The notes under the pieces were generated by a model. It was not told the origin of the DNA and ran no database searches. It was given only the letters and a program-made list of their open reading frames with translations. Below, in pieces: positions 10,543-15,723 of a stretch of DNA of 63,344 nucleotides; positions within the stretch are counted from its first letter, which is position 1; each line of letters begins with the position of its first letter. The DNA lies in the IMG/VR virus record IMGVR_UViG_3300037228_000056, positions 1 through 63,344 of that record, one strand, 5' to 3'. A program made the translations under genes and the position numbers. Origin of the DNA: a virus. Lineage: Duplodnaviria > Caudoviricetes.

Positions 10543-11127
10543 ATGGCCACGGGAGCGCGCGGGGGCACCGGGCGCTTCCGGCGGACCGTGGAGTCCGCTG
10601 CGCGCGACATGCGCGCGGCGGAACTCCACGGCCAGGGCTGGACGCACCAGCGCATTGCCGACGAACTCGGATTCGCGCACCGCGGCAAGGCGACGGAGGC
10701 GATCCAGCGCGCGTTCGCGTCCATCCCCACCGAGGGCGCGGAGATGGCCAAGCGCATCGACCTCGAGCGCATCGACCAGCTGATCGAGAAGAACTGGGAA
10801 GTCCTGGAGCGCCAGCACGTCACGGTCAGCCAGGGCCGCGTGGTGCGACGGTTCACCGGTGTGGAACGGCACGCCGACGGCATCGAGAAGCTGGACGCCG
10901 ACGGCAAGCCCATCCCTGTCTTCGAGGACGTGCTGGACGACGGCGCGGTAGCCACCTCGAGCACCGTCATCCTGCGGCTGCTGAAGCGCCGCGCGGAAAT
11001 GTACGGGTACGACGAGCCGGTGCACACGCGGGTGGAGATCGTGCCGCCCGAGGTGATCGAGGCCAACATCGCGCGGCTGGAGCTGGAGCTTGCCGGCAAC
11101 GACCCCGCTCGTCCAGGCGCCGCTTGA
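10543..11127 (+). CDS. terS: Terminase small subunit
   Basis: HTH GWTHQRIADELG, C-terminal RRAEMYGYD; overlaps the start of terL. Confidence 0.75.
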   Translation: MATGARGGTGRFRRTVESAARDMRAAELHGQGWTHQRIADELGFAHRGKATEAIQRAFASIPTEGAEMAKRIDLERIDQLIEKNWEVLERQHVTVSQGRVVRRFTGVERHADGIEKLDADGKPIPVFEDVLDDGAVATSSTVILRLLKRRAEMYGYDEPVHTRVEIVPPEVIEANIARLELELAGNDPARPGAA

Positions 11128-13933
11128 CCGGCTCCGCTACCTGCAGGAGCTTCAGCGCCGGTCAGCGCAGATCAAGCGGGGGGTGGCGAGGTACTACGAC
11201 GACCCGCTCGGGTTCGCGGCCGACTGCATCGACTGGCGCGGCGGGGGGCTGAAGGAGTACCAGCAGGAGATCATCGGCGAGCTGCCGTCCCGCAAGCGCG
11301 AGGCGGTCCGCGGGCCCCACACGCTCGGCAAGTCCACGATCGCCGCGGTCGCCGTCCTGTGGTTCGGGCTCACGCGCGATGCCGCGGGCGTTGACTGGAA
11401 GGTCGCGACGACCGCCGGGTCATGGCACCAGCTGACGAGGTACCTCTGGCCTGAGATCCACAAATGGTCCGGGCGCCTGCGCTGGGACAAGGTGCGCGAC
11501 GGGCGCCCGTTCACCCGGCAGGAGCTTCAGAACCTCAACCTTCGCCTGAGCCACGGCGCCGCGTTCGCGGGAGCCAGTGCCAACGCTGCGCTGATCGAGG
11601 GCGCGCACGCAGACTCGCTGATGTTCATCTACGACGAGTCCAAGGCGATCCCCGCGGGCACGTTCGATGCCTGCGAGGGCGCGTTCGGCGGCACGGGCGA
11701 GGCGCTCGCCCTGGCGCTCTCCACTCCCGGAACGCCAGCGGGCCGGTTCTACGACATCTGCACCCGCCGCGCCGGCTACGAGGACTGGCACCCGGTCCAC
11801 GTCACGCTGGAACGGGCGATAGCCGCGGGCCAGGTCGATGAGGCGTGGGCTGACCAGCGCGCACGGCAGTGGGGCACCCAGTCGGCGATCTACGTCAACC
11901 GGGTGCTCGGCGAGTTCCACGCCGGCGACGAGGACTCCGTGATCCCGCTCGCGTGGGCTGAGGCCGCGGTGATCCGCTGGCTTGAATGGGATCTCGCCGG
12001 AAGGCCCGGAACCGAGTCGGCGTGGCCGCGGACCGTCGGCGTGGACGTGGCCAGGTCGGGCTCGGACAAGACGGTCCTGGCACCGCGCCGCGGCCCGGTG
12101 ATCATCGACCTTCGCCGCTCGGTCAAGGAAGACACGATGCAGACCACTGGCCGCGTGAAGGGCGTCCTTGACGCTGACCGGGGGCGCACTACCCCCGTGG
12201 TGGACGTGATCGGCATCGGCGCGGGCGTCGTCGACCGGCTCCGCGAGCAGGAGTACCGCGTTGAGGCGTTCAACGCATCGGCCCGCAGCGATCGCCTCGA
12301 CGCCACGGGCGAGCTCGGGTTCATCAACTGCCTAACCGGCGATGCGCGCGTCACTCCGGTCGGGAACCTCCGGCGCATCTACCGGAGTCGCCACGAGGGA
12401 CCGCTTCTCCAGGTCGAAACGGCCAGCGGCGACCACTTCACCGCCACCCCGAATCACCAGGTACTGACGCTCCGGGGATGGGTCGCGGTCCAGTCGCTCC
12501 GCGTGGGCGACAAGCTCTGCGATGCCTCGGTCCGTAATGCGCCGGATGCAGCCGCCGTTCGGCCAGAAGTAGACGACGTGCCACCCAAGCTCAGCGAGGT
12601 CTATCGCGCGGCTGACGTTGTGTTCGGATCGGAACGGGTGCAGCGCGGGACTGTGGACTTCCATGGCGACCGACCTGCGGGTGAGGTCGATGTTGTAACG
12701 ATCGACCGCCGACTGCTGGCCCGTTATCCATCCTCCGGGCAGTGCGCCGAGCACCATCAGTTCATCAGGCTTCTGATACTGGCGGGTCAACTCCCGCGTC
12801 CGGGAGCGCTTGCGCATGCGGTCGGGGTGCGTGACCGGATAGGACGGATAGCTGCGTCCCTCCCAGACGGGAGGATGCCTTGTCCCGCGCTCCCTTCGCT
12901 GGGCGAGGGTGAGCCGGTTGAGGACGAGATTGTTCGCCTCGGTGATCGTTCGCGCCGTGACGCCATGGTCACTCAGGACGCGGTAGATAATCCGTTCAGA
13001 GTGACCGTAGGCGAGCGCCAGCGTCTTGGCCGATTCCCCCTCCATGTAGCGCCGGACGACCTCAGGCTCGTCAAGGTGAACCGTGCGGGTGAGGCGCATG
13101 GACTCGGCGTGCACGCGGGCCGTGACCTCGGCTTCGCTCAGGACGCGGCGAACCGCGTAAGGGTCAACTCCGAACGCCTTGGCCAGCGCGTGCACCGACT
13201 CGCCGACCGCGTAGCGGGCGACGAGGGCTGCGGAATCGACATTCGCGGCGGTCGCGAGCCTGGTGGCCTCGGCTTGGCCGCGTGGCTTGATTCCGTGTAC
13301 GTCAAGAACCTCGCGGATGGTGCTCCGGTCGGTCCGGTAGAGCTTGGTCAGCGAGTTAAGGGACTCGCCGGCGAGATAGCGCTGGATGAGGTCATCAGAG
13401 TCGAACTGACTGCGCCTGCCCTTGGGCATGAGGCACCTTTCGTTTACACGCTCGAAACGTCTACGGGGTCCTACGGTACCGCCAATGTGGTACATCGGAA
13501 CTGCCGGTCGGCGGCCTGGTGGGGCCTGCGCGAGATGCTGGACCCGTCATCAGGCTCGGAGGTCTGCCTTCCCGACGACGACATGCTTCTTGGCGACCTC
13601 TCGGCGCCGCAGTGGAAGGTGCTGAGCGGCGGCAAGATCCAGGTGGAGTCCAAGGAGGAGATCACCAGGCGCCTCGGCCGGTCAACGGACGACGGCGACG
13701 CGGTAGTCCAGGCTTTCTGGCTCACGTCGGCCCCGCATCAGGCGAACGCCCGCCAGTATGCCCTGCAGGCCGAGCTGGACGCGCTGACCCGTCCCGCCGA
13801 TCCGCGCCGCAGGCTGGCCGGTGATCCCTCGCGGCACGACGGCCGGCGTGATGACGGCTGGTCGCTGGACTCATTCGCGCCGCAGGAAGACGCGGGAAGG
13901 CCGGCGCGGCCTAACGTGCACTCGTGGCGCTGA
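11090..13933 (+). CDS. terL: Terminase large subunit containing an intein
   Basis: Walker A GPHTLGKS, Walker B FIYDES, nuclease GVDVA and DDGDA; spliced junction reads GFIN/CRSAAWWGLREML. Confidence 0.92.
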   Translation: MPATTPLVQAPLDRLRYLQELQRRSAQIKRGVARYYDDPLGFAADCIDWRGGGLKEYQQEIIGELPSRKREAVRGPHTLGKSTIAAVAVLWFGLTRDAAGVDWKVATTAGSWHQLTRYLWPEIHKWSGRLRWDKVRDGRPFTRQELQNLNLRLSHGAAFAGASANAALIEGAHADSLMFIYDESKAIPAGTFDACEGAFGGTGEALALALSTPGTPAGRFYDICTRRAGYEDWHPVHVTLERAIAAGQVDEAWADQRARQWGTQSAIYVNRVLGEFHAGDEDSVIPLAWAEAAVIRWLEWDLAGRPGTESAWPRTVGVDVARSGSDKTVLAPRRGPVIIDLRRSVKEDTMQTTGRVKGVLDADRGRTTPVVDVIGIGAGVVDRLREQEYRVEAFNASARSDRLDATGELGFINCLTGDARVTPVGNLRRIYRSRHEGPLLQVETASGDHFTATPNHQVLTLRGWVAVQSLRVGDKLCDASVRNAPDAAAVRPEVDDVPPKLSEVYRAADVVFGSERVQRGTVDFHGDRPAGEVDVVTIDRRLLARYPSSGQCAEHHQFIRLLILAGQLPRPGALAHAVGVRDRIGRIAASLPDGRMPCPALPSLGEGEPVEDEIVRLGDRSRRDAMVTQDAVDNPFRVTVGERQRLGRFPLHVAPDDLRLVKVNRAGEAHGLGVHAGRDLGFAQDAANRVRVNSERLGQRVHRLADRVAGDEGCGIDIRGGREPGGLGLAAWLDSVYVKNLADGAPVGPVELGQRVKGLAGEIALDEVIRVELTAPALGHEAPFVYTLETSTGSYGTANVVHRNCRSAAWWGLREMLDPSSGSEVCLPDDDMLLGDLSAPQWKVLSGGKIQVESKEEITRRLGRSTDDGDAVVQAFWLTSAPHQANARQYALQAELDALTRPADPRRRLAGDPSRHDGRRDDGWSLDSFAPQEDAGRPARPNVHSWR
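12329..13501 (+). mobile_element. Intein in TerL (391 aa), no sense-strand endonuclease
   Basis: Cys1 CLTGDARV, block B TATPNHQV, block F VYTLET, end VVHRN|C. Confidence 0.85.
12332..13429 (-). CDS. Antisense intein-embedded putative homing endonuclease (3x HTH + DUF559/Vsr-like domain), 365 aa
   Basis: GAAAGGTG SD 4 nt before ATG 13429; three RY..GES...L.....S/D.....L repeats; E...Q..VDRYNIDL...AMEVH...H...R..L..LGWHVVYFW. Confidence 0.8.
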   Translation of the reverse strand: MPKGRRSQFDSDDLIQRYLAGESLNSLTKLYRTDRSTIREVLDVHGIKPRGQAEATRLATAANVDSAALVARYAVGESVHALAKAFGVDPYAVRRVLSEAEVTARVHAESMRLTRTVHLDEPEVVRRYMEGESAKTLALAYGHSERIIYRVLSDHGVTARTITEANNLVLNRLTLAQRRERGTRHPPVWEGRSYPSYPVTHPDRMRKRSRTRELTRQYQKPDELMVLGALPGGWITGQQSAVDRYNIDLTRRSVAMEVHSPALHPFRSEHNVSRAIDLAELGWHVVYFWPNGGCIRRITDRGIAELVAHAERLDRDPSPERQYLVIRGGGEVVAAGRFDLEKRSLVATPVDAPEVPDRSDARIAG

Positions 13934-13953
13934 GCCGAATGTATTCTTGACGC

Positions 13954-14494
13954 ATGGTCAATGAAAGTCGGCCCGGAGAGCTTATCGGAGCGTCTGGGGT
14001 GGCGTCGCGTCTCGGTATCTCGCGACAGCGCGTCAACGATATCCGCAGGGACGCGCGGCTTTGTTTCCCAGAGCCTGCCTTCGCGCCTGGAGGCAGGGCA
14101 CTGTGGTGGGCAGCCGACATCGACGCTTACGCGGCGACCCGGAACACGCGGCCAGGACGCCCGAAGGCTGCCGATCCGGTGCTCCGCATCCCGGCCGGAA
14201 CGGTCCGGCCCGGCGACAAGATCCGCCTTTACTCCGAGGGCACCTTCTCTGAACCGGTAGCGGCGACGCTAACGGAGTACCCCGACGGGCTTCGGTGGTC
14301 CCGTCCTGACATCCGTGCCATCGGCGAGCAGTCGCGCGCTGATGATCTCCGCAAGCTCGGCATGACTGAGGCCGATGCGCGCGCCGACCTCGACGCGATC
14401 AATGCGGCGATTGCGACCGCGCCGAAGCCGTGCAAGCACCCCCCATGTCCTCAAGGGCTGGTGCAACGACTGCAAGACCGGCGGTCACTACTGA
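13954..14494 (+). CDS. AlpA-like HTH protein, probably frameshifted at C6 run 14439-14444
   Basis: Leaderless (TATTCT 6 nt upstream); IGASGVASRLGISRQRV...FPEP; removing one C gives CKHPHVLKGWCNDC...TGA 14494. Confidence 0.5.
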
Positions 14495-14497
14495 GAA

Positions 14498-14582
14498 CCA
14501 GGATGCCCCTGCTCTCCCGGTTGAGCTACGGGCCGGATCGCCAGCCCGACGGGATTCGAACCCGCAACCGAGGGCATCCCGG
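14498..14582 (-). ncRNA. Circularly permuted tRNA-like RNA (YrlA/Y-RNA-like architecture)
   Basis: Order 5'->3': T-arm GCGGG TTCGAAT CCCGT, acceptor stem closed by CGAT loop, TA, D-arm GCTC AACCGGGA GAGC; enclosed by a 12-bp terminal stem. Confidence 0.7.
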
Positions 14583-14613
14583 CCCTGTTGCCGATCCTAA
14601 AGGCAGGCACGCG

Positions 14614-15143
14614 ATGACCCTTCCCCGCACCGACACCGCAGCGGCGCTGAGGCTCGCAGGCAGGCGAGACGAGATCCACCCGGCAGATGCCATGGCATTC
14701 ACCTACCCGGACCGGGAGTACTTCGAGGCGTCGGCGAAACGGGACCGCGAGAACAACGGCAACGAGGTCATCGGGCCGTTCGAGACGGACGAGGGCCTGA
14801 TCGGCATCGTGAGCATGCAGCCGCAGATGCGCGCGCGGGGATGGGAAGTCACCGATCCCGCGCTGCCCGACGACTACGGTCCCGGTGCCGTGAAATCCCG
14901 CGCGGTCTGACCATGGCCGTAGTCCTCTACACCGCCCAGCGCGACCTTCAGGTCTGGTCCGCCGTCGCCTCGTGGATCGCGCCGGCGGGAAGCAACCTGC
15001 CGCTTGACGACTGCAGCCCGTTCACTGCCGGCCTGCTGGCGGCGGGAGGGATCGCGCTGGCGCCGCCGGGATCAGTCGACACGGCGAGCCCGGCGAACAT
15101 CGAAAGAGGCATGCCCGGCCTCAAGGTCGGGGTGAGCAACTAA
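14614..15143 (+). CDS. Two hypothetical genes (14614-14910; 14913-15143)
   Basis: SD-like AAAGGCAGG before ATG 14614; ATG 14913 lies 2 nt after the stop. Confidence 0.55.
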
Positions 15144-15723
15144 CCGCGAGTCCACGCGCCGTCCTGCCACCAGTCGCCGCCGTGCTCGCGGCTCAGGTCG
15201 TTCGCCTCGGCGAAGGTCATCGCGAACTGGTGGTAGACCTCGCCTGGCCGGCCGGCAACGACGCGCGCGATCGTCTCGCGGGCGCTCTGCCGCGCTGAAT
15301 CCGCCGCCCGCTGCGCGTAGTAGTCCTCAAGCGCTTGCGGGCTGCCGTCCATGAGTATCCACGAGTCCGTGCCGGTGGAGAACACGGCGAGGTTGCCGTC
15401 TGGCTGCCTGATGATCTGATGGCCCACGGTTAGCCGATCACCGAGCGCCAGTCCACGTTTCTCGCGAGATCCTCGTAGTCGCGCCGGGCCTGAGTCGCGC
15501 GCTCGATCGCCTCGGCGACGGCAGCGCCGGTCATGCGCGCGCAGATCGCGTCCGTGATCCGTTCCGCAGTCGCCTGGTCGGCCATCTCGTCAACCACGTC
15601 CAGCAGGTCGCAGGTGTACCGGACCTGCTGACAGTAAAGCGCCTCGGTCATGAGCACTCGCCGGGCGTCGCCGTGACGGGACAGGTGCTCGCGCAGCCGG
15701 ATCGCTGATGACATCTCGGGCAT
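15140..15723 (-). CDS. Two antisense moron genes (15430-15723; 15140-15427)
   Basis: Leaderless -10 TACGCT 6 nt before ATG 15723. Confidence 0.6.

Follow-up and report, generated by a model that had tools for sequence, protein, structure and literature searches.

Inteins that carry an endonuclease gene on the opposite strand have been described before. Gosselin, Arsenault and Gogarten report endonucleases of two types, VSR-like and LAGLIDADG, in anti-sense orientation within full inteins of the terminase large subunit (TerL) and minor capsid genes of actinobacteriophages; the text of their preprint counts 784 actinobacteriophage inteins, 63 of them with non-canonical endonucleases, and terms the architecture rare (bioRxiv 10.1101/2025.01.02.630785). 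Earlier anti-sense LAGLIDADG inteins, in Synechocystis dnaX and in a Chloroflexus SpoVR-like gene, are cited there (Gorbalenya 1998; Gogarten 2002). Here we analyse the terL locus of IMG/VR virus record IMGVR_UViG_3300037228_000056, a linear stretch of 63,344 bases with 70% GC and a CheckV completeness estimate of 65%; 'the window' refers to this stretch at its full length. We conclude that terL of this uncultivated high-GC (70%) phage very probably contains a composite mobile element, in which intein splicing is combined with a homing endonuclease gene on the opposite strand. The initial annotation of the window had suggested such a layout and knew of no description of it; the preprint already provides one.

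Compared with the anti-sense VSR-like inteins, as presented in the main text of the preprint, the window has the same contiguous intein with an opposite-strand endonuclease open reading frame (ORF) inside it, the same Vsr-like core with a long helical N-terminal part, and a host gene of the same kinds (TerL or minor capsid). It differs in that the present copy resides in an uncultivated IMG/VR phage outside PhagesDB, and in that the ORF here overlaps the Hint blocks at both ends, with its start and Shine-Dalgarno (SD) sequence in block F; 63 of the 64 relatives sampled share this layout, at 39–73% GC. A term search of the preprint, confined to its main text, returned nothing on ribosome-binding sites, promoters or start codons. 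The anti-sense LAGLIDADG inteins, as they appear in the same text, likewise have opposite-strand coding within a contiguous intein, but the endonuclease is of the LAGLIDADG type there, and of the helix-turn-helix (HTH) plus Vsr-like PD-(D/E)xK type here.

A second comparison is with fractured genes. In the text of Dassa et al. (2009; PMC2677866), Vsr-like endonucleases are free-standing genes between the split-intein halves of such genes, and the 3′ end of the endonuclease gene overlaps the downstream split-intein gene in 15 loci. These systems, with Vsr-like or GIY-YIG endonucleases, resemble the window in having a Vsr-like endonuclease in its own gene between the N and C intein parts and overlapping the neighbouring intein part; they differ in that the host, as that article portrays it, is split into two ORFs in the parent orientation, whereas the window has an uninterrupted host frame and an inverted endonuclease. 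I-Bth0305I (EDxHD family; PDB 3R3P) comes from a group I intron in recA of Bacillus phage 0305phi8-36 and is not intein-associated; it is 13% identical to the window endonuclease over the aligned core. What is added here is breadth beyond actinophages, down to 39% GC, a codon-alignment rule, the placement of endonuclease start, SD and stop in the Hint blocks, mirror-image substitutions and a natural empty allele.

The TerL precursor is a single frame of 947 codons without a stop (11090..13933, plus strand; 947 aa, exact start codon uncertain). Residues 1–413 hit phrog_2, 'terminase large subunit', at 4e-21, and the protein shares 56% identity with the 547-aa terminase of Streptomyces phage TurkishDelight (BLASTP, from residue 30). 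The latter alignment breaks off at ...GFIN in the window and GFRN in TurkishDelight, and picks up again at RN|CRSAAWW versus RN-VRSAAYW, leaving out window residues 414–804; the TurkishDelight protein is an intein-less homologue that reads across the insertion site. A megablast of the region against GenBank phages gave no match.

Between the N-extein (11090..12328, plus strand, ending ...GFIN), which is delimited by the end of the TurkishDelight alignment and by the junction of a natural intein-less allele, and the C-extein (13502..13933, plus strand, starting CRSAAWW), which is delimited by TerL relatives, the same alignment and the intein-less contigs, lies an intein of 391 codons or 1173 nt (12329..13501, plus strand). 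It begins with Cys1 (TGC at 12329, in CLTGD), contains block B (TPNH, 12446–12457), block F (FVYTLET) and block G (VVHRN), and ends with Asn (AAC, 13499–13501), which is followed by the +1 Cys. This agrees, in residues, coordinates and layout, with the TerL intein drawn in the initial annotation. In the eight TerL inteins found at this one site (window, L003–L007, L011 and L012) the boundaries are identical, and the Cys1 nucleophile, a T[PA]NH block B and the C-terminal N|C junction are present in all. For intein residues 1–129 there is a match to phrog_15127, in its intein part, at 3e-20. It is well supported by the sequence that the insertion is a class-1-type intein, predicted to splice; splicing of TerL is to be expected because the protein is essential for packaging and its frame has been maintained.

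The opposite strand of the intein contains a codon-aligned ORF of 365 aa plus a TAG stop at 12334–12332 (12332..13429, minus strand), the putative homing endonuclease gene. The ORF and the SD sequence claimed for it earlier are both present: GAAAGGTG (13434..13441, minus strand) lies 4 nt before the ATG at 13429 and is antisense to the sense codons A-P-F of block F. A longer form of 387 aa is possible from the first in-frame antisense ATG, at 13495; homologues and the database gene call begin at the position of 13429. The TAG stop is the complement of intein codon 2 (CTA). About 94% of the intein lies under an ORF on both strands. In all eight TerL inteins the endonuclease start (ATG, GTG or TTG) is antisense to a His or Gln codon, 24–25 codons before the intein C-terminus, and the stop is antisense to a sense CTA Leu codon. 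A purine-rich, SD-like box also precedes the start in the relatives listed, as GGAGG in the low-GC loci. In six of the TerL inteins the stop falls at intein codon 14 or 15; in L005 and the window it falls at codon 2. Intein codon 14 is CTC in the window, and the last 12 endonuclease residues therefore look like a read-through extension; residues 353–365 are also modelled at a predicted local distance difference test score (pLDDT) below 50 by AlphaFold2 (AF2).

The antisense product is a real protein with, according to profile and model, a Vsr-like PD-(D/E)xK fold. It matches HTH_58 (1.2e-11, above the curated cut-off), HTH_28 and HTH_7 in Pfam, and has three HTH DNA-binding modules (12953..13408, minus strand; residues ~8–47, 61–105 and 113–159), followed by a Vsr/DUF559/EDxHD-like PD-(D/E)xK nuclease domain (12479..12781, minus strand; residues 217–317) with invariant Y245, N246, D248, A255 and E257. 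Its homologues are 45–67% identical, and two of them are named very-short-patch-repair endonuclease by the Joint Genome Institute (JGI). An AF2 model made with a 36-sequence alignment has a mean pLDDT of 86.3 and shows three 3-helix modules and then an alpha/beta domain. With the family profile, the tandem-HTH protein 2lvs is matched at 1.2e-6 and 3hrl at E 5.7e-4; all 36 sequences have D248 and E257, which in the alignment are the counterparts of the D and E in the motif of 3hrl. MTES_1575 matches 14/36 family members and DUF559 2/36. A VIA-align search with the endonuclease model resolved the domains, with the Vsr alignment extending to residue 337. Both parts of the domain architecture first read from the sequence, three HTH repeats and a DUF559/Vsr-like nuclease, thus stand, the former by Pfam and the latter by the family profile and AF2 fold.

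Could the antisense ORF be a chance open frame of high-GC DNA, the middle of the sense frame being the real, unrecognised domain? At 70% GC an antisense frame that shares codon boundaries is often open, and such an explanation has to be set against the properties of the two strands. The sense 'filler' (12503..13426, plus strand; ~308 codons) is stop-free but has no family match: as had been noted at the outset, it lacks any recognisable motif, and it gave no hit in Pfam, PHROGs or NCBIfam. In the opposite frame, HTH matches exceed the curated cut-off and AF2 returns a Vsr fold at a pLDDT of 86. Composition also changes over the segment. The GC content of sense third codon positions (GC3) is 0.82–1.00 in the N-extein, the N-terminal Hint region (0.82–0.88) and most of the C-extein; over ~12500–13430 it drops to 0.55–0.80, whilst that of sense first positions (GC1, equal to antisense GC3) climbs to 0.72–0.90.

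Substitutions among the eight TerL inteins flip in the same place. In the endonuclease core, sense positions 1/2/3 show 0.52/0.35/0.43 differences per site, the mirror image of 0.40/0.35/0.53 in the N-extein, and amino acid identity in the core is 0.45 on the antisense strand versus 0.35 on the sense strand; the filler is not the selected frame. At the ends of the intein the relation is reversed. The N-terminal Hint region (blocks A–B; 12329..12502, plus strand) has an identity of 0.70 in sense versus 0.56 in antisense, with sense position 3 the most variable, and is sense-selected although the antisense ORF reads through it; the C-terminal Hint region (blocks F–G; 13427..13501, plus strand), on whose antisense lie the endonuclease start and SD, has 0.59 in sense versus 0.29 in antisense and is also sense-selected. 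Three independent lines, namely family and fold, composition and substitutions, agree that the antisense strand codes the middle of the intein.

The initial annotation had regarded the N-terminal Hint blocks as double-coded. The overlap of the ORF with blocks A–B is real, but the selection signal there is on the sense strand, and six of the eight TerL relatives stop 12–13 codons earlier. AF2 predicts confident strands in endonuclease residues ~318–352, which overlap blocks A–B, and the nearly invariant V325 and P317 are antisense to the block B His codon and to a conserved Trp codon. We considered the conserved tail (~318–352) as proof of a functional double-coded segment and rejected it, since these residues mirror conserved sense codons and the sense frame is the better conserved there; the tail may still be a functional part of the nuclease.

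With codon boundaries shared by the two frames, only TTA, CTA and TCA on the antisense strand produce a stop in the sense frame. These codons make up 1.08% of usage in the exteins, from which 3.3 sense stops are expected per 310 endonuclease codons; the probability of zero stops in the window alone is ~0.035. An IMG/VR scan with the family profile gave 34 loci, 33 of which have a codon-aligned opposite open frame of 320–1291 codons over the full length of the endonuclease match. From a scan of metagenome contigs came 30 loci, all nested likewise: 16 are new, and the other 14 have a 200-nt endonuclease segment identical to one in an IMG/VR locus. The nested loci range from 0.39 to 0.73 in GC, and in the four with GC ≤0.43, 9.1–14.7 sense stops are expected and none is present (P from 1e-4 to 4e-7). 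Across the relatives the open sense frame is, judged from these counts, clearly selected. The antisense ORF is itself stop-free over the tblastn match, or to within 8–22 codons of its end, in all 64 loci, at identities of 23–67%.

The relatives also complete the case on the chance-frame explanation. In its favour are the ease with which aligned frames open at high GC, the zero-stop probability of ~0.035 for the window alone in the converse direction, and a single-sequence prediction of the sense fold that is uninformative. Against it, beyond the domain matches, the model, the flip in codon-position GC and substitutions and the unmatched sense middle, is the occurrence of the same antisense protein in loci of 39–47% GC. 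We consider this explanation scarcely credible.

The same counts bear on whether terL might instead be a fractured gene with a split intein, sense translation stopping and restarting in the middle and the halves being trans-spliced, as in Dassa et al. 2009. Vsr-like endonucleases were, according to the text of that article, first described between split-intein halves (PMC2677866), and a filler of 300 residues looks costly to translate. However, there is no sense stop in the window, nor in 33/34 and 30/30 relatives, against expectation; and the parts of a fractured gene keep the parent orientation, whereas the endonuclease here is inverted. We regard a split terL as very improbable.

The single non-nested relative in the sample (L028:4037-4753, plus strand) is a 238-aa HTH ORF that neighbours a transglycosylase/LysM gene and lacks a Hint frame on the other strand; from its sequence it may be a free-standing family member. 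Genome contigs scanned with the family alignment gave 13 pattern matches, none of which was confirmed. A profile search of 1.84 billion representatives gave 29,797 proteins at E ≤0.001, 8,277 at 1e-10 and 1,749 at 1e-30, the last number being one of clusters at 50% identity with E 1e-30 or better. The best 150 matches are mostly 216–446 aa long and cover the whole profile; five longer matches (546–927 aa) align solely via repeated HTH modules, and the weaker matches may be HTH-only proteins. Longer in-frame fused forms (640–2000 aa) were not found, which is weak evidence.

The family is nested in intein frames of TerL, MuF or portal-MuF genes. Host frames of 23 of the 26 more distant IMG/VR loci (L013–L036; the non-nested L028 was left out) were scanned with Pfam. 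Intein_splicing (PF14890) was matched by 19/23 at E ≤1e-4, 11 of them above the 35.8-bit cut-off, with the N and C parts of the profile 240–330 residues apart; 16 match Phage_Mu_F, 6 match Phage_portal and 4 match neither. The Phage_portal hosts (L015, L020, L022, L027, L030 and L034) are ORFs of ~950–1070 aa, of which L027, L030 and L034 also match Phage_Mu_F; where Pfam located the intein (L015, L022, L030 and L034), it is in the C-terminal part.

A search of GenBank phages with the antisense protein gave 18 records (Gordonia phages, Idiomarinaceae phage 1N2-2 and Virus Rctr197k), the matches lying under genes annotated as MuF-like or head morphogenesis. The strand relation was checked for Gordonia phage Vivi2 only. 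In Vivi2 gene 14 (1083 aa; ...EVIN|CFVAD...GHVFTLQ...ARN|CRC) the match is on the opposite strand and codon-aligned, with the antisense ATG complementary to the His codon that precedes VFTLQ; the record annotates only the long MuF host gene and has no antisense ORF feature. That the similarity to Gordonia phage genes is a by-product of sense homology was considered and rejected, as it is the antisense frame that contains the HTH and nuclease domains, and substitutions flip. Four other Gordonia phages among these records (Affeca, Angelicage, Keitabear and Sedona) have tblastn matches to the Vsr-like antisense protein under MuF-like minor capsid genes. The text of the preprint gives the same four as cluster 47, examples of an endonuclease VII-like intein (bioRxiv 10.1101/2025.01.02.630785). 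Either both elements are present in these phages or the assignments differ.

A natural empty allele was found in two DNA runs from one permafrost sample. An X2 contig (2251 nt, depth 28.3) and an X4 contig (427 nt, depth 16.5) both lack exactly 1173 nt. Their flanks (12199–12325 and 13499–13933 in X2; 12232–12325 and 13499–13831 in X4) have 0 differences to the window, and another X2 contig of 5723 nt is identical to it over 11090–12228. The joint, from 12325 to 13499, is ambiguous by 7 letters. A 7-nt direct repeat, AACTGCC, spans the N-extein/intein junction (12326..12332, plus strand) and the intein/C-extein junction (13499..13505, plus strand), each time as Asn-Cys; it accounts for the ambiguity, and the missing segment is therefore exactly the intein. 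The N-extein and the intein both end in Asn, and the intein and the C-extein both begin with Cys, so that the empty allele retains Asn-Cys at the site. The intein-less terL junction that had been predicted from the sequence is read as such in both runs. Of the coverage of the intein in runs X2–X5, only the contigs that join across it are taken as evidence, and uncovered parts are not. One phage thus exists both with and without the intein, which fits recent invasion or precise loss.

Such an allele is relevant to whether the endonuclease gene, although intact, no longer homes, being a recently immobilised passenger or a domesticated DNA-binding or regulatory protein in a vertically inherited intein. 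Consistent with this, the intein is at one shared site in all 8 TerL relatives. Other observations argue against it: substitutions in the core are distributed, in mirror image, as in an ordinary gene kept by purifying selection; D248 and E257 are unchanged throughout the family alignment; the ORF has stayed open, to the extent given above, in 64 loci that have diverged to 23–67% identity; there is an intein-less allele with identical flanks; and host genes of three kinds carry the family, a spread that must have involved transfer between genes. Loss of homing is therefore, in our view, unlikely.

Several points weigh against the interpretation as an active intein with an opposite-strand homing endonuclease. 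The penultimate intein residue of the window is Arg, in place of the usual His, with a His at −3; the penultimate residue is Arg or Lys in all eight TerL inteins, as H-[R/K]-N in seven and A-R-N in L007 (His at −3 in 7/8). A penultimate His is absent from some active inteins. Hint models match weakly, below their curated cut-offs (PF14890, 24.0 bits against 35.8; TIGR01445, 23.6 against 24.5). AF2 of the sense intein as a single sequence, with no alignment, gave a pLDDT of 31.2 throughout, the Hint ends included, and says nothing about the filler. The endonuclease of the window alone reaches no nuclease family: Pfam returns only HTH families, and the only hit of a phmmer search against PDB is an adenylate kinase (E 0.75). 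The nuclease assignment therefore rests on profile and fold, and in a Foldseek search of the whole model against PDB nothing was found at E ≤0.001, 1cw0 being at rank 4 (E 0.15). A scan of 12000–14200 for sigma-70 promoters and terminators gave 0 and 0, in a search that excludes actinobacterial and phage promoter types, and among public sequencing runs no RNA run is listed for this stretch. The two consequences drawn in the initial annotation, an uncoupling of homing from late terminase expression and an antisense control of terL, are accordingly conjectural. An open sense frame is no more than mildly improbable when the window is taken alone, at the P(0) given above. The intein-less allele comes from one sample and could be a product of precise loss rather than an uninvaded target. 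Lastly, the relatives were gathered with nuclease-motif patterns (DRYN[IL]D), and the survey samples that subfamily only.

Elsewhere in the family, candidate promoters can be seen on the endonuclease strand. In 5/6 low- and mid-GC MuF loci (L020, L022, L024, L025 and L030; not L014) there is a TTGnnn-N17-TAnnnT motif ~27–36 nt upstream of the start, its −35 box beginning 54–64 nt before the ATG and inside the antisense of the C-terminal Hint region; TTGACA-17-TATACT and TTGTTA-17-TATAAT are examples. The motif is found in 0/8 of the high-GC TerL loci, the total of promoter-like sites in the loci scanned does not exceed that in shuffles, and the loci are mutually related. Sigma-70-like promoters for the endonuclease in the low- and mid-GC MuF loci are thus suggestive only.

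Other ORFs lie 3′ of terL in the window. Directly 3′ of the gene is a 318-aa ORF with an HTH-like N-terminus (13954–14910, plus strand), with no portal gene directly there, and further downstream (15140–15723, minus strand) are two short ORFs of 95 and 97 aa.

Taken together, we propose that the element in terL would work as follows. The class-1-type intein (Cys1 ... Asn|Cys) would supply protein splicing, and the opposite-strand gene would supply the homing endonuclease, with three HTH modules and then a Vsr/DUF559/I-Bth0305I-like nuclease. The endonuclease would be translated from its own SD and ATG in the antisense of block F, and would end at the TAG that is antisense to a CTA Leu codon of the N-terminal Hint region. 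Synonymous codons can replace TTA, CTA and TCA; the endonuclease gene avoids all three, and terL would therefore be translated through ~300 filler codons, the filler presumably being discarded along with the Hint domain on splicing. Cleavage by the endonuclease is presumed to take place at the intein-less junction (...ATCAAC|TGCCGG...), and repair would copy the whole unit in. The initial annotation had likewise seen an inverted, separately expressed endonuclease whose antisense product is spliced out as filler; coding on two strands, the fold and 63 nested relatives bear out the arrangement, whilst expression of the gene and splicing of the filler are inferred.

A further reading, to which we give somewhat less than an even chance, is that antisense nesting is the normal, possibly obligate, lifestyle of a large HTH–Vsr-like family, in which intein and endonuclease are interlocked and Hint blocks F–G double as ribosome-binding site, start and, at low GC, sigma-70-like promoter, with a sense Leu codon of the N-terminal Hint region serving as the endonuclease stop.

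The basic layout being already in the preprint, the gain here is one of confirmation, breadth and mechanistic detail, not the discovery of a new kind of element. For annotation, nested antisense endonuclease genes are easily missed or miscalled. The intein-plus and intein-minus alleles define the exact putative cleavage target, and Gordonia phage Vivi2 is a cultivable model. The locus is a natural example of a long antisense overlap made workable by avoiding just three codons: one stretch of DNA has two uses, as a real gene on one strand and, on the other, as a meaningless spacer that would be translated and then discarded by splicing. It supports the view of inteins and homing endonucleases as separable partners that can associate in more ways than one. 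If the two are indeed interlocked in this family, then neither the intein nor the endonuclease could be lost or moved alone, and the endonuclease would be expressed independently of the late host gene.

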